Shown here one piece after another: positions 8,912-37,673 of a stretch of DNA of 64,000 bases. The stretch covers positions 64,847 through 128,846 of the forward strand of contig CALXMM010000003.1 of NCBI GenBank assembly GCA_944389475.1. Direction: 5' to 3'. The stretch is from an uncultured Clostridia bacterium. GTDB taxonomy: Bacteria; Bacillota; Clostridia; TANB77; CAG-508. Each line of letters opens with the position of its first letter. Position 1 is the first letter of the stretch. The translations under genes and the position numbers were made by a program. The notes under the pieces are model-generated. The model saw nothing but the letters and a program-made list of their open reading frames with translations. It had not been told where the DNA came from and searched no databases.

Positions 8912-9664
8912 ATGAAAAAATTTAAATATAAAATAATATTATTTTTTTGTATACTACTCTTTAGTTATTCAATATTTAACATTTTAAATTGGTATAAAGA
9001 TTCTAATAGTATTGCAAAAGAAAGTGAAAACTTATTAAACACAGCCAATGTAATAAATAGTGAAATTGCATCAACTGAAGAAAATACAACTAATACACTT
9101 AATTCTTCTAATTCTATAAATTTTGATGGATTAGAAGAAATTAACAAAGATGTAGTTGGTTGGATACAAGTAGATGGTACAAATATAAATTATCCTATTG
9201 TGCAAACAAAAGATAATTCGTATTATCTTAACCATTCATTTTCTAAAGAAGAGAACAAATCCGGTTGGATTTTTTTAGATTACAGAAACGATATAAATAA
9301 TTTTGATAAAAATACCATAATATATGGACACTCTAGATATGATTCCTCAATGTTTGGCTCATTAAGAAATTGTTTAAAAAAATCTTGGTTTAACAGCTCT
9401 AAAAATCGAGAAGTGCACCTTACAATTAAATCGGGAAACACTACTTGGAAAATCTTTAGTGTATACCATTTGCCTATAACTAGTGATTACTTAGCTACTT
9501 CTTTTAAAAATGATGAAGAATTTAACTCTTTCATAAAACTAATAAAAAATAGAACCGTTTTTGACTTTGGTATAAAAGTTACATCAAAAGACAAAATTCT
9601 AACATTGTCAACTTGTTTTAGAACTAATGAAAGAATGGTAGTACATGCAAAATTAATCAGTTAA
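8912..9664 (+). CDS. srtB: Class B sortase
   Basis: N-terminal TM, VVGWIQVDGTNINYPIVQTKDNSYYLNHSF, YGHSR (catalytic His) and TLSTC (TLxTC Cys motif), plus a C-terminal Arg. Length and motifs are typical of SrtB. Confidence 0.85.
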   Translation: MKKFKYKIILFFCILLFSYSIFNILNWYKDSNSIAKESENLLNTANVINSEIASTEENTTNTLNSSNSINFDGLEEINKDVVGWIQVDGTNINYPIVQTKDNSYYLNHSFSKEENKSGWIFLDYRNDINNFDKNTIIYGHSRYDSSMFGSLRNCLKKSWFNSSKNREVHLTIKSGNTTWKIFSVYHLPITSDYLATSFKNDEEFNSFIKLIKNRTVFDFGIKVTSKDKILTLSTCFRTNERMVVHAKLIS

Positions 9665-20561: not shown

Positions 20562-23500
20562 TTATTTTTTATCTTTATGTCTCTTTGTTAAAACTACTGC
20601 GTATCTTAATGTTACACTTTCTAGGACTACTAATATTGCTAATACAAATAGTAAACCTGTTGGGAACTCACCTGTTTCTACACTTATTATAGCAGTTGCT
20701 TCATCCGTATTATCCTTATCATTTTCATCTTTAAATCCTGGTACATTATCTGTTTGTATTAATGAAACTTCATTAACCTTATTACCCATATTTTCTCCAG
20801 AGCCTTTCCAGTTTAATAATACTGTGTATTCTTTGGTTTCTCCACCTTTTATTTCTGGTATTACCTTTCTTAAGGTTCCATTATTTTCTTCCCATGTTCC
20901 ATCATTATGCGCTAAACTCATTCCTTCTGGTAATTTATCTTCTATAATTGCCCTTCCTTCTACTTTGCTAGTATTAATTACTTTTATCTTATATTCTATT
21001 TGTACACTTGTATTCTCTGTACTCTTTCTGTAAATTTCAACTCTCTCTAATTTTCCATTAGTAGCAGACCTTCTATTACCATTTATTATTATTCCTGTTA
21101 TTTCTTTCTCTACTCCTAAATTAAATGGCTTTGGTTCATAATAATAGTATAATTCAATTGTATTATTTACTATATCTTTATCATCTTTATCCTTGGTAAT
21201 TTCAACTTTCATTTTACCACTACTATCTTTAGGACTTTCTACTAGAGAATAATATTCAAATTCTTTTGGATTTGTAGTATATTCATCATCTTTTTGTCCC
21301 TCAAGTATTACTTGACTATTTTGCAATTCACCTGTCTTAGAATTTGTTTCTTCTATCTCTTTTCCTGTTGTTTTATCCACAAAATGTACAATTACTTTTG
21401 CAGGTTGATAATAATAATAATTTACTACTATCTTATCTTTAGTCATTTTTCCTTTAGCATTTGCTGGTAGGATGTTGTTTCCATTTTTATCAGTCTCTGC
21501 TACTGCATAGCTTAAGAATTCTTTAGGTTTAATATCATATAAATCTCCAATATGTCCTTCTTGTAATGTAAGTGGTTCCAATTCTTCACCACTTAGAATA
21601 TCTATATGATGTACCTCAACGCCAGTAGACTTCTTCGCATAATAGTATGTTACAACAGTTCTATTATTTGTAATATTACCCTGTTCATCTGTTTCAACAG
21701 CTAATATTCCATTAGCATTTGATGATACATCTACCAAATCGTAATCTTCTATACTCCTTTGTTCTGTTGTATAACTATCACCTTCATGCTTTGTATCATC
21801 AACTATTTGCTCTGCCAAAGGTTCACCTGTTTCTCTATCTATGTAATTAACTTCTAGCACTGCCTTTTTAATGTAATAGTAATTTACCGTTACAGCTTCT
21901 TCTCCTATGGTTCCTTTGTTATTTTCCGGAAGTTTATTTTCTACTAAATCATATCCCTCAAAATTTTTGCTAGATATGTTATAGTTATCTCCAACTGGAA
22001 CATTATGTTCTTCTGTGTACAATATTTTACCCGTAATATCATCGATATGGTTCTCTAATAATTTTGTCTTAATCTTCTCATAGTAATAAATTAGGGTTTG
22101 TTCTTCTTTTGTCATTTTTATTTTTGTCTTTTCAGGACTTTCTACCAATTTATATCCTTGGAAGTTCTTTGAATTCGTAACAAATTCATCTCCAACTAGT
22201 CCTTCCTTTGTATATGGAGTTTCTAGGTCTTTGATAATTTGATGTGTTTCCGAATCTCTTTCCACATATCTTACTGTTGCTCTTGTATTTTGTAGATAAT
22301 AATAAGTTACATTTGTGTCTGCAACAGTCATGTTTCCTTGAACATTTCCACTTTTAGAAACTAATGTATATGTTTTACCATCTTTTTCTATTTTATCTTT
22401 CTTATGCTCTGTATCTGTATTATATTGGTCATCAACATGTCCATCAATTTGCTCATTATTTGCTAATACTTGGTTATTACCATCATTATCATCTAAGTCT
22501 TTTTCTATATAATGTATTATTACTTTTGCTGGTTTTAATCTATAATAATAGGTTACTTCCTGTGGTTTTTCTTCATTATATTTTTCTAAAATTCCTTCTG
22601 AATTTCCTACTGTTGCATCTTGAACCAACTCATATTTTTCATTAATATTTTCCGCTGGTTTAGCTTTATAAGGCTCTCCTTCTTTTCCTTCTATTACTTC
22701 ATCTTGAATTTCTTGACCATCAGTACCTATTACTTTATTTGTAGTTTTTGTACCATCTAAATTCATGATGTAATGATGTACAGTAACCTTTCCATATTTA
22801 TTTGTATTTGTAACTACTCTTCCTGTATTATCCACTGTAGCACTATAGTAAGACAAATCTCCATTTATCTCTGTTACAGTATACTTAATCTCTTGGTTAT
22901 TAACATCATATTTTGGTAAATTTGTAAATATATCATTCCACTTATTTGGATTTGTACTATCCTGTGTTGTTGTAGTACCCTTTGTTCCTGGTTTTGCTAA
23001 TTCCATGGTTCTTTCACTACCATCACTACCTTTTAGTTTAAAGACTACTTTTGTTGGACGTTGTCCAAGTTTATTATCTTCATCTTCCCAAACTTTGCTT
23101 ACTGGTATATTTACTATAAATCCTGTTGTAGTTGTACATTTTGCTGTTACCTCATCACCTATTCTTTCCGGTGTCTCATATTCTATATGTGCATTAACAA
23201 TATTTTCGATACTTACCGTGTTTTGAGTTATTCCTTGGTATACAACTTTAATTTGTTTATTAATTGATACTTCTTTTGTTTCTGTTAACTGCATACCTTG
23301 AACTTCCTGTTCCCAGGTAATTGTTTTGTTTAAAGCATCATATGTTCCACCATCTAATTCAGATTTAGTTTCATCCAATGCATATGGTAATTTGTCAACT
23401 AGTACAACTTTAGCTTTTCCTTCATAATCACTAATTTGTGTAAAATAGCTTATATTGTATGTTATTTCTTGGTCTAAATTTTCTATTGCAGATGTTCCTG

Positions 23501-26500
23501 TCATAGATATTTCTGGATTATCCTTTGGCTCTACATATGTATGTTGCAATTCTTCTGGAATTTTTTCATCCTGTCCATTAGTATTTATATACACTATATT
23601 TTTAAGTATTGTTCCATCCACCAAAGTATTAACTATAACTTTAAACTCTACGATAACTTCAAAATTAATTCCTACTGCAACATTTATTCCATTTTGTAAA
23701 TCCAAAGCAGTCTTACTACTATCTGCAATATCTCCAACTTTTATAGAACCATCTACAAATGTTGTTCCTGTTGGTATTACATCTTTTACAAGTGCTGTAC
23801 CATCTCTTGTTCCATCATTCTTTAACTTAATTCTATATGTAATTGTATCTGATTCTCTAACTTTACTACCATTTGCTGGGTCAGATTCTTGTTTTGCTGA
23901 TATATTAGCTTTTGTAACATTTGTTATAACTTCATTTGTTTGCTTATTATCAACACTAGCCACATTCTTTAATGCTTTAGAATATTCTCCCTCAGCTAAA
24001 TCATCTACAATTCCTGCAAATACTACATCAACTGTAGTAAATTCTGGAACATCCACCTGTATTCCACTCTTTAAGTTTTCTTCTGTATATGAAGTACCAA
24101 TATTTCCAACTTTTATTTGTGTAGAGCTATCAAAACTCATTCCTTCTGGTAAACTATCTGCTAAAGTTACTGTTTTACCTAGGTTACCAGTATTTTTAAT
24201 TCTTACTGTATATGTTACTTTATCTTTCTCAGAAGTTTCTGTTTTATCTACAAATTTTTCTGCACTAATTATTGGTTTGTAAATAGTACTTTCAAAATTA
24301 TTGCTTGCTTCCTTACTTATCCTTTCTGGAGTTAGCAATTTAATATGTCCTTTAACATTGTTTGTTATTTTTTCTTGGTTCATATCTAAACCAACATAGA
24401 ATACTTTAATATTCTTTGTTATATTAACTGTTCCTTTACCATTATAACTATTTAAGTTTGATACATTTTCTGCCCAAGTTATTGTCCTATCTGTTTCGTT
24501 ATATGTTCCACCATCTAAGTCATTTGATTTACTTGTATCTAGTGCATATGGCAATGTATCTATTATTGTTACCTCTGCATTTCCAATATAATCATTTATA
24601 TTGGCATTATATGTAATTGTATAATTCATTTCCTGATTTGCAGATGTAATTTTATCTGTTCCTGATTTTTCTATGGTATTAGTTCCTGAAGGATTCTTTA
24701 AGCGATAATAATATATTACCTCGGTATCCTCCTTCGTTATTTCTCCAGTTTTATTATTAGGTATTCTTTCTTGTACCAATTCATAATTTTGCATAATATT
24801 TCCTGCAGGGTTTGTTGTATATTCTTCACCTTGAGCTCCTTCTATAATATCATCCTGCACTTCTCCACCATCAATACTTGGTACTTTTGTTGTTGTAGTT
24901 ATACCATTATCATCCATAATGTAGTGATGTACTATAACCCTTCCATAAACACTTATATTCGTTACTGTCTTAGAAATTTGGTCAATACTTCCTTTTTTGT
25001 AGAATTTATTTCCTAAGTCCTCTTCATCAACAGTATAGATTATGTCATTACCATAGTTGTCCAATCTTGGTAAATTATTAAATGTATATGTCCAAGTATT
25101 ATTATTTGATGGGTCTGCATTTTGTGAGGTTAATTCTTGTTTATAAGAAGTATTTACACCCTCACCAGTTCCTCTAAGTACCATTATTACTGAGCTTGAA
25201 CGTTTTCCTTTAGAATTTTCATTATCATCCCATACCTTAGCTACAGGTACTGATATTCTTTCATCCGGTACTACAAATTTATTTGATATTGTATAACCAG
25301 AATTCATATCTCCAGAAATAATCTTGTTTTCTGCTGTATAGAATTTATCATTCAAGTTCTCTTCATCTGCTGAGTAATTTATTATATTACCTTTTTCATC
25401 ATATTTTGGAACACTGAATGTATATTGCCATCTGTTTTTATCTCCATTTACCGCATTCTTTTCGGTTACTACTTCTGATGCAACTATTCCACTTTCATTC
25501 TTAACTTGTAGTGTTACACTTGCGGGTCTCTTTCCTGCAATATCTCCATTATCATCCCATACCTTTGTTACAACTATATTTGCTTTATCTCCAGGTACCT
25601 GGAATTTATTTGTTACAGTTCTTGTCTCTTGATTAAGATTAGATTTTATATAGAATATACTTTCTATATCTTTTTCGTTTATTGTATAAGATATTTCATC
25701 ACCATAATCATCATATTTTGGTAAGTTTGTAAATGTATATTCCCAAGTATTCTTATCTTCGTTAATAGCATCATCTTCTGTTACCTTTTCTTCCTTAGAA
25801 ATATTTACTCCTTCTCCAATACCTGTAACAGTTAATATTGCACTATCCGGACGTTTCTCTGCAAAATTTTCATTATCATCCCATACTTTTTTAGCTGTAA
25901 CAGATACTGTTTCATCCGGTACACTAAATGTATTTGTAATTGTTCTAGTTTGTTGGTCTACACTTGTAATATAGAATTTGCTATTTACATTTTCTTCATT
26001 TACTGAATATGTAATTTCATCTCCATTTACAGAATTATATTTTGGTAATTCCATAAATGTATATGTCCATTTATTTGAATCTGTATCATCAACATTATCC
26101 TTAGTTAAGGAATTTCTATATGGACCACTTCCATCACTTGCTGTTACAACTATATCTATGCTTGATGGACGTTTATTAGCAATATTACCATTGTCATTCC
26201 AATCAATTGTTACTGGAATACTTATTTTATCATTTGGTACTTTAAATTTATTTGTAATTGTCTTTGTGTCTTGGTCTATATCACTATTTAAATTTGTATA
26301 ATAAATATTTTCCAATTTTTCACCTAACAAATATTCTATTTCATCACCATTTGCATCATATTTTGGTAAATCACTAAATGTATATGTCCAATGATTATTA
26401 TTAGATGGGTCTGCATTTTGTGAGGTTAATTCTTGCTCATAAGAAGTATTTACACCTTCACCAGTTCCTCTAAGTACCATTGTTAAAGAACTTGGACGTT

Positions 26501-29500
26501 TTTCTGCAGAATTTCCATTATCATCCCATACTTTTGTAACTGGTACAGAAATCCTTTCATCAGGTACTTGGAATGTATTTGTTACAGTCTTAGTTAATTG
26601 ACTAACACTTGATGTGTAGAATTTGCTATTTTCTTCTTTGCTCTCCTCTTCTGCAATTGTATATTCTATTTCATCACCCATGCTATCCAACTTTTGTAAG
26701 TTTGTGAATGTATATTCCCAAATATTTTGATTTTCTACTGCATAACCGCTATTTAATACCACTTCTTCTGTTTTACCATTTCCACTTATAGAAATTGTTA
26801 CAGAATTTAAACGTTTACCTGCACGGTTATTATTATCATTCCATACTTTATTCACTGTTACTTGTGTTCTTTCATCTGGAACCTCAAATTTATTTGTTAC
26901 AGTCTTTTCTTCTTGGTTTATTACTGTATTAGCTCTTGTATAGAATTTGTTTCCTAAGTCTTCCTCACTTAATGTATATATTATTTCATCTCCATTTACA
27001 GAATTATATTTTGGTAAATCTGTAAATGTGTATAGCCACTTATTTCCATCATTTAAATCAGCATTATGTCCACTTAATGTTGCTTTATGTGGATTGCTTC
27101 CATCATTTCCTGTTAATACTAAAACAACATCATCAGGTCTCTTATTAGCTATATTATTGTTATCATCCCATATTTTAACAACAGGAATTGTAATTTTATC
27201 TGTAGGAACTTTAAATGTATTAGTTATAGTTTTTGTATCTTGTTCCACTTTACTATTTTCAGGTTTATAGTAAATATTGTCTAATTTTTCACTTAATACA
27301 TAATTAATTTCATTCCCCTTTTCATCTAAGTTTGGTAAATCTGTAAATGTAAATCTCCAAATATTTTCATTTGATGAATCAACATTTTCAGTTGTTAACT
27401 CTTCTTCATAAGAGCTATCTACACCTTCACCGATTCCTTTAAGCTTCATAGTTACTGAGCTTGGACGTTTTCCTGCAAAATTATTATTGTCATCCCATAT
27501 TTTTGTAACTGGTATAGAAATTCTTTCATTAGGTACTACAAATTTATTTGTAATTGTATAACCGGATTCCATATTTCCATCAATCACAGTATTCTCTCTT
27601 GTATAGAATTTATTTTTCAAATTCTCTTCATCTGCTGTATAAGTTATAACATCACCATTTTCATCATATTTTGGAACATTAAATGTATGACTCCATTTAT
27701 TTTGGTCTCCATTTACCGCATCATCAATGGTTACTGCCTCGGAAGCAACAACCTGATTTCCATTTTTTACTTGTAATGTTGCACTTGCGGGACGTTTTTC
27801 TGCAAAGTTATTATTATCATCCCATACTTTTGTAACAACAACATCCACCTTATCACCCGGAACATGGAATGTATTCGTTATTGTTCTTGTTTCCTGATTA
27901 ACATCAGATTTTATATAGAATATACTTTCTATATTTTTTTCGTTTATTGTATAAACAACTTCATCACCATTGTTATCATATTTAGGTAATTCTGTAAATG
28001 TATATTCCCAAGTATTATCATCACCAGCAACTCTATTTGATAATGTTATTTCTTGCTCTTTAGAAATATCTACTCCTTCCCCTTTTCCTGTAAGAGTTAA
28101 TATTGCTGTTTCAGGACGCTTGCCAGCAGAATTGCCATTATCATCCCAATACTTTTTAGCTGTTACAGTTATTTTTTCATCAGGTACACTAAAAGTATTT
28201 GTTATAGTTTTACTAGTTTGGTCATAACTTTCTACATAAAATTTATTATTATCTTCTAAACTTCTTTCCTCACTTACCTGATAATCTATTTCTTTTCCAC
28301 TTTCATCATATTCTGGTAAGTCTATAAAAGTATATTCCCAATTATTTTCATTTTCAGCAACAGCATTTATACTACTAATAGGTTGCTTATATGTCTGTCC
28401 ATTTCCAGTTAATACTAATGTTACTGAATTTGGTCGTTTACCTGCAGAATTTCCATTATCATTCCATACTTTTGTAACCTTTACATCTTTTAAGAATTCT
28501 GTTGGAATATCCTTTGTATTTTCAACAGTATTTGTTTTTTCAGGTGTTTTTAAATTCAATGTGCCTGTAACTTTATTTGTTACACTTGCTTTTGTTACAT
28601 CTAAATTTTGGTATACTAAACTAATATTCTTAGTTACATTTATTTGTTTTTCTCCATTTGCAAAAGTATCTATTCCTGTAATACTTTCTGTCCAAGTAAT
28701 TGTATTAGTATTTTCATCATAATTTCCATCATTTAGGTTTGATTTTTCTTTATCTATTGCATATGGAAGTGTATCCACAATTATTACTTCTGCCTCACCA
28801 ATATATGTATCCACATTTGCTGAATATGTAATACTATATGGTACTGCTTGGTCTTTTTCTGTCACCTTTTCCAAAGTACTAGTTTTATCTATTTTACTTT
28901 GTTCAATTGTTGGCTCTTTTAATTTATAGTAATAAGTTACAACTATTTGTTCCAAAGTCATTGTTCCATTTGAATTTTTAGGCAAGTTTTCTTCTACAAC
29001 TTCATAGTTATTTGCTACATTTTCAGATTCACTTGTATTATATGTATCTGTTACTCTTCCGTTAATTAGCTCATCTTCTACAACTCCACCATTCTTTGAT
29101 GGTACATTAATATCTGTTCCATCAATGTAATGATGTACTAATACACTTGCAGATTTTAGCCTATAATAATAAGTTACCTCTATTGTATCTTTCTGTATAA
29201 TTCCACTTGTTTCACCTTCTGTTGATACAAGTTCATAGTTTTCGCTTACATTATCTGCCTCTTTTGTAGCATATATTTCTCCTACATTTCCTGTTTGTAC
29301 TACATCTTCTACAACTCCATTAGAATTATTTGGTACATTTGTATTTGTATCTTCTATATAATAATGTGTTATTACTGTTCCTTTTAATCTTGCATTTGAA
29401 ATATTTAATGTTACAATATCATTTTCTCTTGAAACACTAAATTCACTTACATTATTTTCTGGTAATTTATAACCCTCTGGAACCTCAATCTCAGTTGCAA

Positions 29501-32500
29501 TATAATCTCCTGCCTCCAAATTAAATTTTGCTTGTCCATTAGAATCTGTTATATATTCACCAATAATTGTTTGTGGTGCATCCTTTGAGGCAATTGTAAA
29601 TTTAGCTCCTTCTATTGATGAATTTGTCTCTTCATCATATTTATTTATTAAAACTTGTCTAGAAACCTTCTTATAATAATATGTTACAACAACTCCATTT
29701 CCAGAATAAACTCCAGTTGCATTAGAAGGTGTATCTACCAACTCATAATCATCACTTAATTTATTATTTTCTATTGCACTTGTTGAATATTCCTCATCCT
29801 TTTTACCACTATATGTTTCATCTTTTGCAGTATCTCCATTCTTTAAAGGTACCGGTGTTGTTGTTCCATCTATATAATGATGTACTGTTAAAGGTATTTT
29901 CTTTTCTTGATAATAATATGTAACCTCTGTTATTCCTGGTTCAAAGGTTCCTGTTGCATTAGCAGGTATTACATATTCTCCATCCTCATCTTTTTCTAAT
30001 TCATATTCATTCAAATCCAATTTTGGACTTGTAGTATATTTTTCTCCATTCTTTCCTTCTAGTAATTCATCTTCTGCTACTTTTGTAGTTGAATATTGTC
30101 CATCTTCAGTTTTTAGATAATGATGTACTAAAACTTGTGATTTGTGAGTATTCTCAATTGTAAACTCATGACTTCCATCCTCTGTAAAGCTAATTTCCAA
30201 TGGTGTTGTATTTGGCTCATATCCTTCCGGTGCTTTTGTTTCTATTATTTCGTAATTTCCATAATGTACTTGTGCTATAGCTTGTCCAGAGCTATTTGTT
30301 GTTGCTTTAGCATAATAATTACTATCTATTTCTTTAATTATAAATGAAGCTCCCGGTAATTTAGCACCTGTCTTGCTATCTATTTTATTTATTATTAATT
30401 TATTTGTTTTTAATGCAAATGTTACAACAACAAATTTATCTTCTGTAACATTTGTAAATTGTGGCATTGTATATGTTCCATCTTCATTTGCTGTAAATGG
30501 CAATTCTTCGCCATTTACTGTAATATTAATTATTTCATAACCTTCCTCCGGTGTTATTATAATTGGTTTTGTGCTATTTTCTCCATATCTAATTGTTTCA
30601 TATGTATTCATTCCTTCTCCAGAAATAGAACCACCTTTTTTATCATCCATTGTTCTTGTAGCTGTTGTTATCTTCAAATCTTTTATTTCATTTTCAACAA
30701 CTAATTCTTGAGTTTCTGGAACACCAACTTGGTTAATAATATCAAGTATCATTCCATCAGAATCCCCATTATTCTCTAATGTATGATTATCAATTTGTAT
30801 AGTACTACTTGAGAAATATCCTCCAGCAATATCTCTTCCATCATATGTTTCTATTACTGTCTCTACATAATCATTACTACTTCCACCAATATTTTTAACC
30901 CATTCTATAATACCATTGTTAGTATACTTTATTAGAAGTCCATCATTACCTAATGAACCATTGTTGGTTAATATCTCACTTCCAAGTTGGATTGTACTAC
31001 TTGCATAATATCCACCTACGATATAACCACCATCAACAGACTCAGCAACTGAACGAATCTCATCATTATCACTACCACCTATATTATTGGTCCATTCTAC
31101 TTCGCCTGCATTATTATATTTTACAATTAAGCCATCATAACTTCCACTTATACTTGAATTTGATAATGTTTTATTATCTACTTGTACTGTACTACTCTTA
31201 AAGTATCCTCCTATAAGGACTCCGCCATCACTGGTTTCTATTACAGAATTAATATAATCATCTCTAGTTCCACCAATGCTCTTTGCCCATTCTACTTCGC
31301 CTGTATTATCGTATTTTATTACTAAACCATCTGTTTCTCCCTTATTTGATAATAATTCATTATCAATTTGAAGTGTACTACTTGCAAAATATCCTCCTAC
31401 GATTATTCCGCCATCATTTGTTACAAAAACAGATTGGATATAATCATAATCATTTCCACCAATATTTCTTGCCCATTCTACTTTTCCTTCACTAGTATAT
31501 TTTATTAAAAGGCCATCATATGGGTTAATTGAAACTGTACTATTATTTGTTAATTCTAGCTCATCTACTTTAATTGTACTACTTGCGAAATATCCACCGG
31601 CAATGCAGCCTCCATCACTTGTTGCTGAAACAGATTGGATATAATCATAACCACTTCCACCAACATTTTTAGCCCATTCCACTTTACCTTCGCTGTTGTA
31701 TTTAATTACTATTCCATCATTATTTCCACTATTTGCTAACACGATATTTCCTATACTTATCATTCCTTGGAAATATCCACCGGCAATACAGCCACCATCA
31801 CTTGTTGCTGTTACAGATACAATTTCATCATTGCTACTTCCACCAATATTATTTGCCCACTCTACTTCGCCTTTACTATTATATTTTATTACTAAACCAT
31901 CATTATTACCGTTATTTATTAAAGAAACATTTCCTACATCTATATTACCCTTAAAATAACCTCCGGCTAAGTATCCACCATCAATTGTTTTAGCTAGTGA
32001 AGTAATTTGTTCTGCCTTACTTCCTCCAACAACTTTTGATTTTAAAACTATTGGATTAGGTAATTCTTTATTTTCAAATTTTATTACTAAACCATCAATA
32101 CCATAACTTCCATTATTCGTTAATGTTCTGTTACCTACTTGAATTGTAGTGCTATTAAAATATCCTCCGGCAATATAACCTCTTCCATCACTCGTTGCTG
32201 ATACAGATTCTATGTAATCATTATTATTTCCACCTACATTTTCTGCCCATTGTGCTTCTCCATTAGCATTGTATTTTATTATGATTCCATCATAAGAATA
32301 ACTACCATTATTTTGAACAGTTTCATTTTCCAATTGTATTGTACTACTTTGGAAATAACCTCCTACAACAAAACCTTCATCAGCTGTAGCATAAATTGAT
32401 TCTATATAATCATATGCTGTTCCACCAATATTTTTAGCCCATTCTACTTCGCCATTAGCATTAAATTTAATTACTAATCCATCTATGCTACCATTATTTG

Positions 32501-35500
32501 ATACCATTTTTGTGCCTATATTAATTGTATTAGTTGTAAAATATCCTCCTGTTATAAATCCTCCATCACTTGCTTTTGTAACAGAAACAACACTATCTTT
32601 TTGTTCTATATTTTTTGTCCATTCAACTTCTCCGGATGCATTATATTTCATAAGAATACTTTCATCCTTAGAAAATCCTGCTACAATATAACTTCCATCT
32701 TCTACTTCTACTATAGAATTAACTCCATCTTGAGAATCAGCATTTCCAAATGAATCAAGCCAGTCTATTTCACCTTTTGCATTAAATTTAACTATAAAAG
32801 CATCCTCATATCCACTTGCTGCCTCACTATCAGAATTTGTTAATGTCCTATCTCCTATTTTAATTGAACTACTTGCAAAATATCCTCCTACAAGTACTCC
32901 GCCATCAGTAGTTGGGGCAATACTTTTAACTCCATCATTATAATTTCCTTCTACTTTCTTTACCCATTCCAAATCTCCTGATGAATTATATTTTATTATT
33001 ACTCCTTCTTTTAATCCATTACTCGTTAATTTTTCATTTTCTATTTGGATTGTATCACTTTGGAAATCTCCTCCTGCAACGAAGCCACCATCACTTGTTT
33101 CGGCAACTGATGTCATTTCATCTAGACCAGTTCCACCAATTACCTTTGTCCACTCTACTTCACCTTCTGCATCATATTTTATTATTATACCATCATAGTT
33201 ACCCTTATTTGTAAGTGTTTCATTTCCAATTTGAATTGTACTACTTGTAAAATATCCACATGCTAAATGTCCACCATCACTTGTTGCAGCTACTGAGCTA
33301 ATATAATCAGTTGAATCTCCTCCAACATTCTCTGCCCAAGTTGAGATCATTCCTTCTGGAACTTCTACAGATGTACCTATACCAAAATAATATACCTTAT
33401 TTTTTGTATCGTATTTGTCAGGTGCCTCTACTTCTACAGCCTTGTACAAACCTTCTGTTAAATCAACAACCAATTCGCCCTTTTCATCTGTAGAAACAGT
33501 ATAATATTCTCTTCCATTAATTAATTCTCTATCTCCAAGAATTTCACCCTTACTATTTAAAGCTGGCTTATCTGTTCCATCATCTATGCTATATATTGAA
33601 AATTTAACATTTGGTATTAATTCTCCTGTTTCCTTATCCTTCTTTATTAATTTAAAAGAAGGACTATCCTCTATTGTAAGTTTTACTGTATTTCCATCAA
33701 CAGTATAATTTTCTTCTTTACCTGATGTATTAATAAATTGCAATACACCATCTACATTTTGAACTTTAAATGTTATATCTTTTATATTTACATATCCTTG
33801 TGGTGCCAATACTTCCTTTAATGTATAAGTTGCACTTTCACCTTTTCCTTCTATATATTGGTACAAATTATTTATTGTAACTGTACCTGTGCTATCTGTC
33901 TCAAATTTACCTATTTCTTCTGTTCCTTTATACAATTTAAATTTTGCTCCTGAAAGATATGTTACTTCTGGAATTTCCTTTGTTTCTCCATCATTTTCCA
34001 ACTCTTCTTGAGCCTCTTCTTTGTCTTCTGTTAATCTTGATTCTATAGTTTTCTTTACTTTAATAATTTGCAAACTATATGTTGGTATCTTTTCATCTTC
34101 TAAATCCAATGTAACAGTTGGTATATTATTTTCTTCTGTAACTGTTTGATTCTTAACTGTTCCATTAGTAATTTGAACAGCGTAACTTCCATTGCTATTT
34201 ACTATTTTAAAAGTTATCGGATTAGATAAATAATATCCCTCTGCTTTTGTCTCTTGTAAAGTATATTCATAATCAACATATAATCCATTTATAGAAGCTT
34301 CTCCACTTGGGTTTGTAGTTAATATTCTACCGTTTTCAGGTAATTTATATCCTGTTAATCTATATTTAACATTTTGTAATGCCTTTTCTGTTCCTTGTTC
34401 TGTTTTATGTATTTTTAAACTTGCTTTAACTCCATCTTCTACTTTTACAATTACTTTATAATCCTGACCTTCTTGTTTTACAACTTGAATATCTTCTCTT
34501 GTTTTTCCTTGTGTCTTATCTACACTTAAATTTCCTTCGCCATCCATATGACCAGTAAATTTAATAATATCACTACTTAATTCATAATCACTTGGAACTT
34601 TTATTTCTTGTAATGAATATGATTTTTCTGCATATAAATCATTTATCGTTAATACACCTTGAGTATCTGTAACAGCCGTTTTGCTCTCACCTGTTTCATC
34701 ATCTGTAATACTATATGTTACCCCAGGTATAACTTTATCCATTCCAGCTTGATATTTTGTTAATTCTAAATTATATTTCTCTGCTATTCTAAAACCTAAT
34801 TTATCAGGTTCAGTTTGAGTTTTATATTTTCCTTGGTCAGTATCTATACTAAAATATACTCCGTGATGACTATAAGATACTTTATTAAGTTCAATTCCTT
34901 CTGGTATTTTTACTGTATAATTAAACACATACTCTGTCTCTGTTGGCATTACATATTCGCCTAAATCTATTAAATATGTTTTTATATTATCCCAATTTGT
35001 TACTTCTTCTGCAGTTTTCCATCCATTTTGTTCATTAGTTAAATCTCTATCCGGATTTTCATTTTCAGAATAATACAATGTTGCATATTGTTGTAAGTCT
35101 TCTGGAACTGTTATACCAGTATCTTTCATCCTTGTTGTGAATTCAGAATTCAAATTTTCTCCACTTATTGCATATGTGTTTCCTTCAAAAGGTATTTTAC
35201 CTAAAATTTGTATATCACTTATTGTATTTTCAGAATTGTTACGTATTTGAACACCTATTGTTACTTCTTTTTCTTCTTCTGGAGATGTTACCCCATACAC
35301 TGGTTTTACATCCGCAACTTGTGGTGATACTATTTGACTTCCTTTATCATCATAATTACTTCCTATTTGGTTTGTTAGTAAACTATTTGATGAAACAAAA
35401 CTCATATTTATAGTATTATAATTTACTTTTTCTTCTGTGTTTAGGTTATCATTTACATCATAAATATCATTTGCAGAATAATAATAATCACTATCTACTC

Positions 35501-37673
35501 CATTTGCTGAATATAATTCTATTGTACTATCTTTAGCAGATATTCTTGAGTCCGGTGTTAAGCTTACATCAATAGTTATATTATATGATTGTGGTGTCTC
35601 ATCTGCATTTTGTGTGTTAATCTTTATTAATTTAATTCCATCACGCTCTACTAATTCATAACTTGTTATTCCAACATTTCCATTATCTATTTCCACATTA
35701 TTAATTTCTGCAGAAAGTATTTCTTCTGGTAATTTAACAATAAAACTACCATTTACCCATCCACCTTCATTATTTGCACTATCATAACTAGCACTTATTG
35801 TAATTTTTTCATTTTTAGTTGTTGATTGAATAGGAATTATGTTTTCACTTATTCCAACCTTTGCAATAGAAAATGGCTCTTCATATAATGCTGTTCCTTC
35901 TGAAGTTCCTAAATCTGTTCCATTCATGTATGCTACAAAAGATGATTCTATATTTTTAAAATTATCAAAATCTTCTCTTGTGTATGTAGTTGTAATATAC
36001 TCATCATCCAATACTTTTAAATTATATACATATATGGTACTATTTGCATTTGTATCGCTTGTTTCTACTCTTATATGTTTTACTGGGAATTCATATGTAT
36101 ATGGGTTTTCACTAGTATAATTAGACCAATTTTCCTTTGTAAATGTTGCTAATAAATCTCCGGTTTCATCATCATATACTTTAATCCAACCATCTTCTTT
36201 TAATAGATTATCTGCTCCTGAGAATGCTATTCCTATATTTGATGTAGCATTTTCCATACTCTCTTTACTTGAATCCACTTTAATAAAATTATCAGATATT
36301 TGTTCTTGTCCATCAGGTGTTTCTTTTAATACTAATCCAGTTGATTCGCCTTCTGCTCCTAAATTTACATTCCAAACAACTTGATATTTATCATCATTTT
36401 CATCTTCATTTGTTCCATTATATATTTTTAATGGCTTTTCTTTAGAAACTATAAACCTACCTTCTGGATTATATAAATATTTACCAACTATTGTTTCTAA
36501 AGTTGTTTCAACAGATACAGGCTGAATATATGTAGCAGTTAAAATTCCTGTTGCAGTATTAGAAGTATATGGGTTTGTAAACTCACTACTTGTATTGTTA
36601 TATCCTTCATAATACGTACTTACAGGTATTTTTAATACTATTTCCCCCATATTTTGATATGCCTCTAATGGATATACCACTTGTACAGTATATGAATTAT
36701 CTCTAGATATGCCACTTGTTACAGTTCCATCTTCTTCTACTTGAGCTTCTCTATATATCTCTAGGACTTTAGTTTCTGCATCATAGTAAGAATCTGCATT
36801 ACTTCCGGTATATGTAACACTTATTGGGTCAAATCCGTTTAATTGTGGTATTTCGGCTGTTACATGATTATCTTTTAAGATTAATTCTTTGTCTGTTTCC
36901 TGTGTATCTATACTAAAATCCAATGTTACTGTTTTATTATTTTCATCAATCCTATTCTCTAAAGAATAGGTACTTTGAGTTTGATTAATTATTTCTGCAT
37001 TTGCAGTTCCATACCAATCAACATTAAAATTAACAGTTTTTGTTATTGGAGTTTCTTGGTCATCTGCATTTACATATGTTCCTGTTAATGTAATACTGTC
37101 CAACTTGCTATAATTATTTACATTGTCACCTATTGCTGAATTTATACTCGCCGGATTAGAATAATCTCCACTTCTAACTAATCCTGTTATAACTTTTTGT
37201 GTTTCACTGTTCAAATCATTAAATTCAATAGTTCTAATATTATTTCCAATATAGTTATCTTTTAGTTGTTCATCTTGAGGAAGGGATGTTTGAAAATAGA
37301 AATTACCATCATTTATCGTAATTTTTGCATCTTTTAGATAACCTGCTGTATCAACACTAAGATTCATGTACAAGATATCTTCTTGTCCTATTTGTTTGCA
37401 AGTTCCTCTAATCTTTTCTTCATTTCCATCACCATCTAAATCACGCAAAAAGAAAGCATCGAATTTAACACATTCATTTGTATCATCAACTATTTCTTCA
37501 CCATCTTTTACTTGGTCATATTCTATTGATTTTGCTAGTTCTGAGTTTTTCTTTGCAATATTCACTCTTTTTACATTAACAATGGCAATTCCAATTACCA
37601 TTGCTAAAATTATTGCAACTATTCCTCCTATCAAAATTAGTTTTACTTTCATTCCATTGTGATTTTTTAACAT
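20562..37673 (-). CDS. Giant (5703 aa) multidomain cell-surface protein with a C-terminal sorting signal
   Basis: Unbroken 17.1-kb ORF in AT-rich DNA.
- N-terminal TM.
- Cna-B/SpaA-like domains (e.g. YNLELTKYQAG...TINDLY...YSLQEIKVPSDYEL).
- 14 SBBP-type blades (GG..DYI.SV..TSDGG...GGYF.S.TIQ.GN..L.N.G..DGLIIKY...GEVEW).
- 11 Cna_B repeats (VTKVWDDN.N..GKRP.SV).
- MucBP-like units (V.VHHY......YYY).
- DUF11-like modules (TYTVRIKNTGN...LPEG).
- C-terminal SVETGEF, a hydrophobic segment and a KRHKDKK tail. Confidence 0.9.
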   Translation of the reverse strand: MLKNHNGMKVKLILIGGIVAIILAMVIGIAIVNVKRVNIAKKNSELAKSIEYDQVKDGEEIVDDTNECVKFDAFFLRDLDGDGNEEKIRGTCKQIGQEDILYMNLSVDTAGYLKDAKITINDGNFYFQTSLPQDEQLKDNYIGNNIRTIEFNDLNSETQKVITGLVRSGDYSNPASINSAIGDNVNNYSKLDSITLTGTYVNADDQETPITKTVNFNVDWYGTANAEIINQTQSTYSLENRIDENNKTVTLDFSIDTQETDKELILKDNHVTAEIPQLNGFDPISVTYTGSNADSYYDAETKVLEIYREAQVEEDGTVTSGISRDNSYTVQVVYPLEAYQNMGEIVLKIPVSTYYEGYNNTSSEFTNPYTSNTATGILTATYIQPVSVETTLETIVGKYLYNPEGRFIVSKEKPLKIYNGTNEDENDDKYQVVWNVNLGAEGESTGLVLKETPDGQEQISDNFIKVDSSKESMENATSNIGIAFSGADNLLKEDGWIKVYDDETGDLLATFTKENWSNYTSENPYTYEFPVKHIRVETSDTNANSTIYVYNLKVLDDEYITTTYTREDFDNFKNIESSFVAYMNGTDLGTSEGTALYEEPFSIAKVGISENIIPIQSTTKNEKITISASYDSANNEGGWVNGSFIVKLPEEILSAEINNVEIDNGNVGITSYELVERDGIKLIKINTQNADETPQSYNITIDVSLTPDSRISAKDSTIELYSANGVDSDYYYSANDIYDVNDNLNTEEKVNYNTINMSFVSSNSLLTNQIGSNYDDKGSQIVSPQVADVKPVYGVTSPEEEKEVTIGVQIRNNSENTISDIQILGKIPFEGNTYAISGENLNSEFTTRMKDTGITVPEDLQQYATLYYSENENPDRDLTNEQNGWKTAEEVTNWDNIKTYLIDLGEYVMPTETEYVFNYTVKIPEGIELNKVSYSHHGVYFSIDTDQGKYKTQTEPDKLGFRIAEKYNLELTKYQAGMDKVIPGVTYSITDDETGESKTAVTDTQGVLTINDLYAEKSYSLQEIKVPSDYELSSDIIKFTGHMDGEGNLSVDKTQGKTREDIQVVKQEGQDYKVIVKVEDGVKASLKIHKTEQGTEKALQNVKYRLTGYKLPENGRILTTNPSGEASINGLYVDYEYTLQETKAEGYYLSNPITFKIVNSNGSYAVQITNGTVKNQTVTEENNIPTVTLDLEDEKIPTYSLQIIKVKKTIESRLTEDKEEAQEELENDGETKEIPEVTYLSGAKFKLYKGTEEIGKFETDSTGTVTINNLYQYIEGKGESATYTLKEVLAPQGYVNIKDITFKVQNVDGVLQFINTSGKEENYTVDGNTVKLTIEDSPSFKLIKKDKETGELIPNVKFSIYSIDDGTDKPALNSKGEILGDRELINGREYYTVSTDEKGELVVDLTEGLYKAVEVEAPDKYDTKNKVYYFGIGTSVEVPEGMISTWAENVGGDSTDYISSVAATSDGGHLACGYFTSSTIQIGNETLTNKGNYDGIIIKYDAEGEVEWTKVIGGTGLDEMTSVAETSDGGFVAGGDFQSDTIQIENEKLTSNGLKEGVIIKYNSSGDLEWVKKVEGNYNDGVKSIAPTTDGGVLVGGYFASSSIKIGDRTLTNSDSEAASGYEDAFIVKFNAKGEIDWLDSFGNADSQDGVNSIVEVEDGSYIVAGFSKDESILMKYNASGEVEWTKNIEQKDSVVSVTKASDGGFITGGYFTTNTINIGTKMVSNNGSIDGLVIKFNANGEVEWAKNIGGTAYDYIESIYATADEGFVVGGYFQSSTIQLENETVQNNGSYSYDGIIIKYNANGEAQWAENVGGNNNDYIESVSATSDGRGYIAGGYFNSTTIQVGNRTLTNNGSYGIDGLVIKFENKELPNPIVLKSKVVGGSKAEQITSLAKTIDGGYLAGGYFKGNIDVGNVSLINNGNNDGLVIKYNSKGEVEWANNIGGSSNDEIVSVTATSDGGCIAGGYFQGMISIGNIVLANSGNNDGIVIKYNSEGKVEWAKNVGGSGYDYIQSVSATSDGGCIAGGYFASSTIKVDELELTNNSTVSINPYDGLLIKYTSEGKVEWARNIGGNDYDYIQSVFVTNDGGIIVGGYFASSTLQIDNELLSNKGETDGLVIKYDNTGEVEWAKSIGGTRDDYINSVIETSDGGVLIGGYFKSSTVQVDNKTLSNSSISGSYDGLIVKYNNAGEVEWTNNIGGSDNDEIRSVAESVDGGYIVGGYYASSTIQLGSEILTNNGSLGNDGLLIKYTNNGIIEWVKNIGGSSNDYVETVIETYDGRDIAGGYFSSSTIQIDNHTLENNGDSDGMILDIINQVGVPETQELVVENEIKDLKITTATRTMDDKKGGSISGEGMNTYETIRYGENSTKPIIITPEEGYEIINITVNGEELPFTANEDGTYTMPQFTNVTEDKFVVVTFALKTNKLIINKIDSKTGAKLPGASFIIKEIDSNYYAKATTNSSGQAIAQVHYGNYEIIETKAPEGYEPNTTPLEISFTEDGSHEFTIENTHKSQVLVHHYLKTEDGQYSTTKVAEDELLEGKNGEKYTTSPKLDLNEYELEKDEDGEYVIPANATGTFEPGITEVTYYYQEKKIPLTVHHYIDGTTTPVPLKNGDTAKDETYSGKKDEEYSTSAIENNKLSDDYELVDTPSNATGVYSGNGVVVTYYYKKVSRQVLINKYDEETNSSIEGAKFTIASKDAPQTIIGEYITDSNGQAKFNLEAGDYIATEIEVPEGYKLPENNVSEFSVSRENDIVTLNISNARLKGTVITHYYIEDTNTNVPNNSNGVVEDVVQTGNVGEIYATKEADNVSENYELVSTEGETSGIIQKDTIEVTYYYRLKSASVLVHHYIDGTDINVPSKNGGVVEDELINGRVTDTYNTSESENVANNYEVVEENLPKNSNGTMTLEQIVVTYYYKLKEPTIEQSKIDKTSTLEKVTEKDQAVPYSITYSANVDTYIGEAEVIIVDTLPYAIDKEKSNLNDGNYDENTNTITWTESITGIDTFANGEKQINVTKNISLVYQNLDVTKASVTNKVTGTLNLKTPEKTNTVENTKDIPTEFLKDVKVTKVWNDNGNSAGKRPNSVTLVLTGNGQTYKQPISSINAVAENENNWEYTFIDLPEYDESGKEIDYQVSEERSLEDNNKFYVESYDQTSKTITNTFSVPDEKITVTAKKYWDDNGNSAGKRPETAILTLTGKGEGVDISKEQEITLSNRVAGDDNTWEYTFTELPKYDNNGDEVVYTINEKNIESIFYIKSDVNQETRTITNTFHVPGDKVDVVVTKVWDDNNNFAEKRPASATLQVKNGNQVVASEAVTIDDAVNGDQNKWSHTFNVPKYDENGDVITYTADEENLKNKFYTRENTVIDGNMESGYTITNKFVVPNERISIPVTKIWDDNNNFAGKRPSSVTMKLKGIGEGVDSSYEEELTTENVDSSNENIWRFTFTDLPNLDEKGNEINYVLSEKLDNIYYKPENSKVEQDTKTITNTFKVPTDKITIPVVKIWDDNNNIANKRPDDVVLVLTGNDGSNPHKATLSGHNADLNDGNKWLYTFTDLPKYNSVNGDEIIYTLSEEDLGNKFYTRANTVINQEEKTVTNKFEVPDERTQVTVNKVWNDNNNRAGKRLNSVTISISGNGKTEEVVLNSGYAVENQNIWEYTFTNLQKLDSMGDEIEYTIAEEESKEENSKFYTSSVSQLTKTVTNTFQVPDERISVPVTKVWDDNGNSAEKRPSSLTMVLRGTGEGVNTSYEQELTSQNADPSNNNHWTYTFSDLPKYDANGDEIEYLLGEKLENIYYTNLNSDIDQDTKTITNKFKVPNDKISIPVTIDWNDNGNIANKRPSSIDIVVTASDGSGPYRNSLTKDNVDDTDSNKWTYTFMELPKYNSVNGDEITYSVNEENVNSKFYITSVDQQTRTITNTFSVPDETVSVTAKKVWDDNENFAEKRPDSAILTVTGIGEGVNISKEEKVTEDDAINEDKNTWEYTFTNLPKYDDYGDEISYTINEKDIESIFYIKSNLNQETRTVTNKFQVPGDKANIVVTKVWDDNGDIAGKRPASVTLQVKNESGIVASEVVTEKNAVNGDKNRWQYTFSVPKYDEKGNIINYSADEENLNDKFYTAENKIISGDMNSGYTISNKFVVPDERISVPVAKVWDDNENSKGKRSSSVIMVLRGTGEGVNTSYKQELTSQNADPSNNNTWTYTFNNLPRLDNYGNDIIYTVDEEDLGNKFYKKGSIDQISKTVTNISVYGRVIVHHYIMDDNGITTTTKVPSIDGGEVQDDIIEGAQGEEYTTNPAGNIMQNYELVQERIPNNKTGEITKEDTEVIYYYRLKNPSGTNTIEKSGTDKITSANQEMNYTITYNANINDYIGNAEVTIIDTLPYALDTSKSNDLDGGTYNETDRTITWAENVSNLNSYNGKGTVNITKNIKVFYVGLDMNQEKITNNVKGHIKLLTPERISKEASNNFESTIYKPIISAEKFVDKTETSEKDKVTYTVRIKNTGNLGKTVTLADSLPEGMSFDSSTQIKVGNIGTSYTEENLKSGIQVDVPEFTTVDVVFAGIVDDLAEGEYSKALKNVASVDNKQTNEVITNVTKANISAKQESDPANGSKVRESDTITYRIKLKNDGTRDGTALVKDVIPTGTTFVDGSIKVGDIADSSKTALDLQNGINVAVGINFEVIVEFKVIVNTLVDGTILKNIVYINTNGQDEKIPEELQHTYVEPKDNPEISMTGTSAIENLDQEITYNISYFTQISDYEGKAKVVLVDKLPYALDETKSELDGGTYDALNKTITWEQEVQGMQLTETKEVSINKQIKVVYQGITQNTVSIENIVNAHIEYETPERIGDEVTAKCTTTTGFIVNIPVSKVWEDEDNKLGQRPTKVVFKLKGSDGSERTMELAKPGTKGTTTTQDSTNPNKWNDIFTNLPKYDVNNQEIKYTVTEINGDLSYYSATVDNTGRVVTNTNKYGKVTVHHYIMNLDGTKTTNKVIGTDGQEIQDEVIEGKEGEPYKAKPAENINEKYELVQDATVGNSEGILEKYNEEKPQEVTYYYRLKPAKVIIHYIEKDLDDNDGNNQVLANNEQIDGHVDDQYNTDTEHKKDKIEKDGKTYTLVSKSGNVQGNMTVADTNVTYYYLQNTRATVRYVERDSETHQIIKDLETPYTKEGLVGDEFVTNSKNFQGYKLVESPEKTKIKMTKEEQTLIYYYEKIKTKLLENHIDDITGKILYTEEHNVPVGDNYNISSKNFEGYDLVENKLPENNKGTIGEEAVTVNYYYIKKAVLEVNYIDRETGEPLAEQIVDDTKHEGDSYTTEQRSIEDYDLVDVSSNANGILAVETDEQGNITNNRTVVTYYYAKKSTGVEVHHIDILSGEELEPLTLQEGHIGDLYDIKPKEFLSYAVAETDKNGNNILPANAKGKMTKDKIVVNYYYYQPAKVIVHFVDKTTGKEIEETNSKTGELQNSQVILEGQKDDEYTTNPKEFEYYSLVESPKDSSGKMKVEITKDKDDKDIVNNTIELYYYYEPKPFNLGVEKEITGIIINGNRRSATNGKLERVEIYRKSTENTSVQIEYKIKVINTSKVEGRAIIEDKLPEGMSLAHNDGTWEENNGTLRKVIPEIKGGETKEYTVLLNWKGSGENMGNKVNEVSLIQTDNVPGFKDENDKDNTDEATAIISVETGEFPTGLLFVLAILVVLESVTLRYAVVLTKRHKDKK
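24965..28495 (-). repeat. Array of 11 tandem Cna_B-type repeats with higher-order segmental duplication
   Basis: Eleven (V/I)(T/A)K(V/I)W(D/N)DN.N...KR(P) units of about 95 aa. Unit types follow the order A-B-C-D-E / A-D-E / B-C-D. The segments at about 25.2-26.0 kb and 27.45-28.25 kb are about 80% identical at nucleotide level, as are those at 25.98-26.30 kb and 26.95-27.27 kb. Confidence 0.8.
30745..33345 (-). repeat. Two tandem seven-blade SBBP-type beta-propeller repeat sets (gene 1)
   Basis: 7 + 7 blades of about 60 aa, counted from the translation. The two sets are split by KFENKELPNPIVLKSKVVGG (about nt 32060). Confidence 0.75.

Follow-up and report, generated by a model that had tools for sequence, protein, structure and literature searches.

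A proline-less, sortase-signal-like tail at the C-terminus of giant surface proteins in a family of small-genome gut Clostridia

Two giant surface proteins of an uncultured Clostridia bacterium (GTDB lineage Bacteria; Bacillota; Clostridia; TANB77; CAG-508) end in the same C-terminal tail, in which the pentapeptide SVETG precedes a hydrophobic helix and a basic end. Both are encoded in a stretch of 64,000 nucleotides of assembly GCA_944389475.1 (contig CALXMM010000003.1, here contig C3; the stretch, C3:64847-128846, is referred to as the window), and the host genome comprises 1.61 Mb at 27.5% G+C and 98% completeness. Our preferred reading, to which we assign a probability of roughly 0.55, is that the tail is a sortase-type sorting signal without proline that continues directly from the terminal immunoglobulin (Ig) domain and serves as substrate of one of two core sortases encoded outside the window. 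We describe the anatomy of the tail, its distribution, the selection acting on it, the independence of its motif from the fold and the inventory of potential enzymes, from which we infer how it might be cleaved, by which enzyme, and what its conserved helical face might do.

Results

Anatomy of the tail

The two giant genes are paralogs with 59% identity across their N-terminal ~2,500 residues. Giant protein 1 consists of an N-terminal hydrophobic signal/anchor segment, Cna-B/MucBP repeats with a MucBP match immediately upstream of the last domain, and the terminal module. Minus-strand translation yields ...ATAIISVETGEFPTGLLFVLAILVVLESVTLRYAVVLTKRHKDKK as the C-terminus of giant protein 1 and ...VSISVETGEFPVGLLIALVALVGLESVTLRYAVVLTKRQKKNNKK as that of giant protein 2, and in both ISVETGEFP is followed by a 25-residue Glu-containing helix and then by a basic tail. 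Translation of both genes thereby confirmed the tripartite layout that an earlier note on this DNA had proposed, along with its observation that the paralog ends in the same SVETGEFP tail. The coordinates given there were exact for the 45-amino acid (aa) tail and one base off for the SVETG and SVETGEF ranges. Throughout, residues are numbered within the last 190 aa of giant protein 1, where the terminal domain occupies residues 1-153. The features are as follows (window coordinates, all on the minus strand).

20562..37673, giant surface protein 1 (5703 aa), from the list of open reading frames (ORFs)
20676..21134, terminal CARDB/DUF11-like Ig beta-sandwich domain of gene 1 (AlphaFold2 model, Foldseek, family matches)
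20565-20699, 45-aa C-terminal tail of giant protein 1
20664-20684, SVETGEF stretch of gene 1
20670..20684, pentapeptide S-V-E-T-G of gene 1, with the putative scissile bond T|G
20661..20669, short linker E-F-P of gene 1 (coil in the model; P158 is invariant in the subfamily)
20586..20660, transmembrane helix TGLLFVLAILVVLESVTLRYAVVLT of gene 1 (helix in the model)
20619-20621, codon of E172 in the gene 1 helix
20565..20585, basic cytoplasmic tail KRHKDKK of gene 1
41096..55093, giant surface protein 2 (4665 aa; ORF list), the paralog with the same terminal module
41099..41224, sorting-signal-like tail of gene 2
41204-41224, SVETGEF stretch of gene 2
41210-41224, SVETG of gene 2
41201-41209, EFP linker of gene 2
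41126-41200, transmembrane helix VGLLIALVALVGLESVTLRYAVVLT of gene 2
41099-41125, basic tail KRQKKNNKK of gene 2

A family-wide C-terminal module

The SVETG tail is the local form of a much larger C-terminal module composed of a CARDB-like Ig domain, the pentapeptide [S/A/T]-[I/V]-x-T-G, a transmembrane helix and a Lys/Arg-containing tail. A phmmer search with the last 190 aa against 1.84 billion representative sequences (E <= 1e-3) matched 1,090 protein clusters, and the match nearly always ended a few residues from the C-terminus of a large protein. Among the 150 best representatives, 145 carry TG followed by a transmembrane or hydrophobic stretch and a basic end. The tail extends a median of 33 residues beyond TG, its last 10 residues contain a median of four Lys/Arg, and the helix begins 0-7 residues past the Gly of TG. 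This geometry is canonical and argues for a sortase signal. Glu or Asp directly follows the Gly in 44% of the tails, and an acidic residue is likewise preferred at this position in the consensus of LPXTG anchors.

The motif logo reads A-x-[VIL]-[IVL]-[IVL]-[SATNG]-[IV]-[KSEGA]-T-G-[EDK], so that the pentapeptide takes the family form [S/A/T/N/G]-[I/V]-x-T-G, of which SVETG in gene 1 is one instance; Pro is found at the second motif position in 3 of 145 tails. An alignment of 38 sequences that extends down to ~30% identity has just ten invariant columns, T154 and G155 among them, and TG is invariant across 28 distinct tails of the subfamily. Thr is kept in ~95% of the tails, and all four synonymous codons of Thr and of Gly are in use. 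Several subfamilies (P0030, P0052, P0064, P0076, P0098, P0112 and P0117; P0046-48, P0053, P0068, P0089 and P0130) have conserved cytoplasmic ends of their own, such as ...IK[DN]IKFL[NK]K at the extreme C-terminus or ...YEYELY.KER at the membrane boundary, and tail sequence beyond its basic character seems to matter in several branches of the module.

In a sample of genomes searched with a single-sequence or profile query, the module was present in 9 of 9 genomes of the host's own family and in 0 of 391 others of the class. Within the family it occurs in 121 of 121 genomes and 50 of 50 genera, with 1-26 copies each; named carriers include "Clostridium sp. CAG:354" and uncultured gut Clostridia metagenome-assembled genomes. 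Recurrence in other proteins and genomes, whose absence would have counted against the proposal of the earlier note, was thus found, and the tripartite layout goes well beyond chance. We found no curated model or paper describing a proline-less [S/A/T]-[I/V]-x-T-G tail: curated NCBIfam and Pfam models gave no meaningful match to it, a literature search on variants of the motif string returned nothing relevant to the tail, and "hypothetical protein" was the only database name found for these proteins. A PEF-CTERM match was rejected as noise (12-12.7 bits vs a cut-off of 23, E = 0.11-0.19).

Five ORFs of the host genome end in SVETGEFP...LESVTLRYAVVLTKR (two on contig C3, one each on C9, where it may be a fragment, C13 and C20). 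Five further ORFs share the terminal domain and have looser tails, namely VIIGVKTGG, VIIGIKTGG, MVIGLVTGEY and, both on C29, LTVKLGD and LTVTLGD. The same genome also encodes ordinary LPxTG tails as well as a single TPKTG and a single NPHTG tail. The pair on C29 (C29:19296-23426 with LTVKLGD, C29:15080-18886 with LTVTLGD) are tandem module paralogs whose orthologs elsewhere read TG; they are natural Thr-to-Leu variants that would be expected to be uncleavable if the tail is a sortase signal. The ORF on C9 (C9:31945-32631, 228 aa) comprises the last MucBP piece and the terminal module with an intact SVETG tail and could represent a piece of a gene or else a minimal, module-only protein. Short ORFs of this kind are also present in three other genomes (G411, G508 and G512).

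The T-G dipeptide belongs to the tail, not to the fold

The AlphaFold2 model of the last 190 aa (pLDDT 90.8) predicts a beta-sandwich with a final strand at residues 143-153 (...ATAIISVE), a coil for TGEFP (154-158) and a single helix at 159-189. Foldseek matched the terminal domain to CARDB, a CLIPPER adhesin domain and integrin calf-2 plus transmembrane segment, the hits to CARDB structures 3idu/2kl6 having E ~1e-5 and TMt 0.65. TIGR01451 (DUF11) scored 19.2 bits for gene 2 (cut-off 24) and did not match gene 1. The terminal domain is predicted to be a generic Ig-like fold.

The tail might also be a permanent C-terminal membrane anchor that is never cleaved, with T-G representing the end of the strand and a hinge glycine before the helix, and with the conserved helical face mediating oligomerisation or binding of a membrane partner. 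The giant S. aureus protein Ebh reportedly stays tethered by a C-terminal helix, and in our model the strand reaches E153, leaving only five residues between fold and helix. We regard a permanent anchor as the main rival reading, though clearly less likely than a sortase signal.

Domain copies that occur away from a membrane helix bear directly on this alternative. One representative (P0024) contains an internal full-length copy of the domain (residues 623-779, E = 6.5e-41) that ends in ...DNSSEVTVITVSSVPTN (...EVTVITVSSVPTN) without TG, whereas its terminal copy reads ...DISVIVGIATGKE followed by the transmembrane segment, i.e. ...GIATGKE before the helix. DUF11-type internal repeats also lack TG. 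Moreover, seven members have an insertion of ~25 residues after the last strand, yet [S/N/E][I/V]KTGD stands immediately before the helix. In the AlphaFold2 model of one of these variants the sandwich stops at residue 153 and two short helices follow, with T181-G182 placed at the junction with the transmembrane helix, in a region where pLDDT is only 56-66. Other members carry MPKTGQ or VIMPRTG[A/V/K] at the same position, an xPxTG motif that speaks for a tail rather than a strand because Pro would break the latter.

T-G therefore belongs to the tail and moves with the transmembrane helix, as indicated by the internal copies without TG, the insertion variants that keep KTGD at the helix and the MPxTG replacements. 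A hinge glycine leaves the TG-less internal copies unexplained. It likewise fails to explain why [S/N][I/V]KTGD is retained at the helix, outside the fold, when ~25 residues are inserted, or why some members switch to MPxTG, where Pro makes the motif more LPXTG-like. Nor does it account for a Thr that persists in about 95% of tails with all of its synonymous codons.

Purifying selection on the tail

In the SVETG/VSTG subfamily, T154, G155, P158, L165, L171, E172, T175, L176, Y178, A179 and K187 are invariant down to 50% domain identity. L165, L171, E172, T175, L176, Y178 and A179 define one conserved face of the helix, and helix conservation is periodic at 100 degrees with a moment of 0.253 that was attained in 3 of 5000 shuffles. 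In a set of 29 genes drawn from about 14 genomes, synonymous (pS) and nonsynonymous (pN) divergence were 0.40 and 0.14 in the tail and 0.34 and 0.16 in the domain, giving a pN/pS of 0.36 vs 0.48. Purifying selection thus acts on the tail no less strongly than on the folded domain. Gene conversion was rejected as the source of tail conservation, which reflects purifying selection on the protein because the synonymous divergence of the tail equals that of the domain.

The conserved Glu and the RYAVVLTKR stretch noticed earlier are real, given the invariance of E172, T175, L176, Y178 and A179. A more distant branch has Ser in place of the Arg of RYA and, instead, an Arg three residues later (LSYARVL). 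The accompanying claim that the tail is more conserved than a generic anchor requires holds for the SVETG subfamily but not for distant relatives, which have generic helices or other subfamily-specific tails; likewise, the conserved Glu is limited to one subfamily and TG is family-wide. Judging by profile E-values, tails of the E172 type, with close copies in the host genome, probably also occur in G411, G439, G443, G467, G472, G478, G498, G507, G508 and G512. Together with a TG that moves with the helix instead of the fold, the selection on the tail supports the view that it behaves as a selected C-terminal signal and not as a generic anchor, and a single constrained face of the helix is what a specific helix-helix contact would produce.

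Instead of a sortase signal, the SVETG-type tail might be what is recognised by a sorting or assembly system of this family that has not been described so far. A membrane partner would read the Glu-bearing face, with the invariant Glu as its key contact, and either process the protein at T-G or assemble the giant adhesins into a membrane-anchored array; the family-wide [I/V]-x-T-G would then be the signature of that system. We consider this unlikely.

Candidate enzymes

Sortases are the only known C-terminal sorting enzymes that are linked to the module by distribution. The host genome encodes eight genes with a sortase domain, two of them class B (TIGR03064, 200 and 182 bits) and six generic, below every class-specific NCBIfam cut-off. 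Sortases (PF04203) occur in 121 of 121 family genomes at 2-15 each, and co-occurrence at the genome level is uninformative because both module and sortases are universal in the family. The exosortase-like enzyme suggested in the earlier note as one option gained no support, as neither exosortases (PF09721) nor rhomboids (PF01694) were detected in the 98%-complete host genome; the positive control of the rhomboid search was found in 14 of 14 reference genomes. The host genome thus offers no enzyme for exosortase or archaeosortase signals such as PEP-CTERM or PGF-CTERM, nor one for the GlyGly-CTERM signals of rhombosortases.

A protease of another kind might process the tail. The genome encodes one CPBP/Rce1-like protease (C20:31031-31669; Pfam PF02517, E = 5e-16), and this enzyme or another membrane protein could read the Glu-bearing helical face, given the invariant acidic residue and the face-wise conservation of the subfamily helix; JDVT-CTERM signals with an acidic residue inside the helix offer a possible precedent by analogy (bioRxiv 10.1101/2023.06.07.544157). 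However, described CPBP-type signals carry an invariant Cys in their motif and the tails studied here have none, the Glu marks a single subfamily as opposed to a family-wide TG, and the CPBP gene adjoins no module gene. We judge non-sortase processing to be distinctly improbable.

Returning to the sortases, a tree of the host's eight and 22 from six small genomes contains two clades that are present in all seven genomes examined in detail. Both sit among housekeeping genes, and one genome (G468) has four module copies and only these two core sortases. Clades I and II are restricted to the family exactly like the module, and this co-restriction test has no power to choose between them. These housekeeping-type sortases are the best enzyme candidates, and their host copies lie outside the window.

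C3:13051-13812, clade I sortase, host copy (support 98/99)
C2:132621-133304 and C12:21-770, clade II sortase, host copies (support 97/100)

The clade I sortase and its orthologs (L058, L064, L060, L061, L067 and L078) have a conserved cytoplasmic N-terminal extension of ~25 residues before the transmembrane helix, MNQIL[VI][ST]EK[IVL]Y[IV]TPE[LM][KR]RK (MNQILV.EK.YITPELKRK), whose full-length form is found only in this family. Such an extension is unusual for a sortase and could contact the basic tails of substrates. The clade II copy at C12:21-770 lies at a contig start, with one in-frame TAA in the matched stretch, and may reflect either a pseudogene or an error of assembly.

The notion of a dedicated sorting enzyme is not supported by the surroundings of the module genes. 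Recurrent downstream genes in 47 related loci, collected with the subfamily alignment as query, were considered as sorting genes and rejected as ordinary synteny. They encode a nrdG-like protein, GatB/YqeY, a PMT_2-like membrane protein, a pair of M16 peptidases and proteins resembling pilins of type IV secretion systems (T4SS). A conserved synteny block lies downstream of one orthologous SVETG-type gene in nine genomes (L036, L038, L040, L046, L048, L049, L050, L052 and L053), where it contains a nrdG-like activase, GatB/YqeY, a 495-aa PMT_2-like membrane glycosyltransferase, the two M16 peptidases, paired small T4SS-pilin-like proteins and VirB4-like genes. Encoded beside a giant adhesin, the PMT-like enzyme might glycosylate it. 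Elsewhere in the host genome, at C5:27202-29082, a short sortase without an obvious N-terminal transmembrane helix is followed by a 421-aa secreted protein whose ORF stops just past ...KKLPKTGM; this LPKTG without a hydrophobic tail may represent a frameshift or a pilus-type arrangement.

The window sortase is not an obligate partner

The earlier note had proposed a class B sortase (SrtB) in the window as a possible partner acting with relaxed specificity. This gene is not part of the feature and is listed here with its neighbor.

8912..9664, plus strand, class B sortase (TIGR03064, 200.5 bits)
9752-10672, neighboring gene with the tail NPHTGD, which scores as an LPXTG/NPXTG-type anchor

The enzyme is a bona fide SrtB located ~11 kb from gene 1, and class B-type sortases read some Val-containing motifs, e.g. 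QVPTG or EVPTG of S. pyogenes pilins, which would be compatible with processing of SVETG. However, the module is present in every one of the 121 family genomes, whereas SrtB (TIGR03064) was found in only 87 of them and was absent from the remaining 34, among them four that are 100% complete (G411, G227, G433 and G455). In G411, module copies are among the best profile matches of the family (E = 4e-63), and the two tails read there are of the IGTGG type. The window SrtB is therefore not an obligate partner. Moreover, both host SrtB genes adjoin substrates of their own (NPHTG and TPKTG), and no SrtB was present in the flanks of the 47 related loci. Taken together, we hold a role of this enzyme in SVETG processing to be very unlikely.

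Discussion

How the tail might work

In a sortase-based scheme, Sec export would leave the precursor held in the membrane by its helix and basic end, and a membrane sortase, most likely of clade I or clade II and not the SrtB of the window, would cut between Thr and Gly and transfer the giant adhesin to a peptidoglycan precursor. In the SVETG/VSTG subfamily, the additionally acquired conserved face (L165, L171-E172, T175-L176, Y178-A179) would pack against another membrane helix. Candidates for this partner are the sortase, a second copy of the helix and a sensor that reads the C-terminal peptide after cleavage.

Several findings weigh against cleavage by a sortase. We know of no sortase that cleaves [S/A/T]-[I/V]-x-T-G, and TIGR01167 (cut-off 15.9 bits) did not match SVETG, GVKTG, MPRTG or SVKTGD tails, when four canonical host tails used as positive control (three LPxTG and one NPHTG) scored 16.1-22.2 bits. 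Further, the long N-terminal hydrophobic segments of giant members resemble uncleaved anchors. Other findings of this kind count at the same time for a permanent anchor. In the model, motif positions -6 to -1 form the last beta-strand of the folded domain, and conservation at 146/148/150/152/154 alternates like that of inward-facing strand residues (A146, V148, I150, V152, T154); part of the "motif" may therefore be structural. Gly is more invariant than Thr, which is replaced in SG (three cases) and KG (one) among representatives, in AG of one ortholog and in LG (KLG, TLG) of two host-genome paralogs. Strong conservation of the helix by purifying selection, including an invariant Glu on a single conserved face, would be unusual for a discarded peptide and natural for a retained functional transmembrane segment. 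No sortase was found in the flanks of the 47 related loci. Finally, in the nearest studied case, NVQTG of C. difficile CbpA (CD3145) was not processed in vitro by SrtB, the only sortase of that organism (PMC4155245, PMC5569036).

The N-termini of the two giant genes (37500-37673 and 54950-55093) encode a 22-23-residue hydrophobic segment without a nearby AxA site, and 10-15 residues past it the sequence NPELA[KR]A-MEY[DE][EQ] is conserved across genera. This might be an unusual distal signal-peptidase site or belong to a retained signal anchor. The giant members have an N-terminal hydrophobic segment followed by a conserved A-[K/R]-A|M-E-Y; members of about 1.6 thousand aa have clear AxA sites, and in several the signal peptide is of the textbook cleavable type, e.g. 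...SVYA|AYEE.

Should the tail indeed be read by a sortase, the grammar of sortase signals would extend to proline-less [S/A/T]-[I/V]-x-T-G, and a simple rule would be available for the surface proteome of a widespread, uncultured, small-genome family of gut Clostridia. At present, module proteins carry the label "hypothetical", and none of the curated anchor models detects them. Two uncharacterised sortase clades would be nominated whose specificity is orthogonal to LPXTG, a property that could be of practical use in sortase-mediated ligation. The conserved helical face with its buried Glu provides a testable case of sequence-specific information in the "disposable" part of a signal.

Comparison with known systems

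A close parallel in architecture is the LPXTG signal of housekeeping class A sortases (TIGR01167/PF00746), in which T-G likewise lies ~30-35 residues before the C-terminus and is followed by a hydrophobic helix and a Lys/Arg tail. An acidic residue often follows the Gly in both, the substrates are large repetitive adhesins (MucBP, Cna-B), and every carrier genome encodes a sortase. On the other hand, [S/A/T]-[I/V] replaces Leu-Pro in the module, the putative signal scores on no curated model, and its motif forms the final part of the last Ig-domain strand, without the flexible wall-spanning spacer.

Proline is not obligatory in sortase signals, as exemplified by LAXTG of the class E sortases of Actinobacteria, and NCBIfam lists a further proline-less model, "Microco_LAVTG". 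Both resemble the tail in lacking Pro at the second position. The LAXTG signals differ in having a small Ala instead of a beta-branched Ile/Val, in keeping the first Leu and in belonging to another phylum. Ebh of S. aureus is likewise a giant repetitive protein with a C-terminal transmembrane helix and a charged cytoplasmic tail, but it is not known to possess a conserved T-G motif that moves with the helix.

Among clostridial systems, the SrtB of C. difficile accepts [S/P]PxTG substrates and thus non-Leu first positions, and NVQTG of the same organism is the only described x-V-x-T-G tail; in contrast to that system, SrtB is dispensable for the module in the family studied here. JDVT-CTERM signals, which are paired with CPBP proteases and carry an almost invariant Asp-Pro within the helix (bioRxiv 10.1101/2023.06.07.544157), share the tripartite architecture and the acidic helix residue with the SVETG subfamily. 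They differ in their invariant Cys and in their occurrence in Gram-negative bacteria or archaea, compared with tails that have no Cys and a Glu confined to one subfamily. For the conserved helix itself, the "C-pep" of Streptococcus gordonii, in which an intramembrane histidine kinase reads the cleaved sorting-signal peptide (as cited in PMC11326707), might provide a rationale by analogy: a helix left in the membrane after cleavage could be conserved in a sequence-specific manner because it is sensed.

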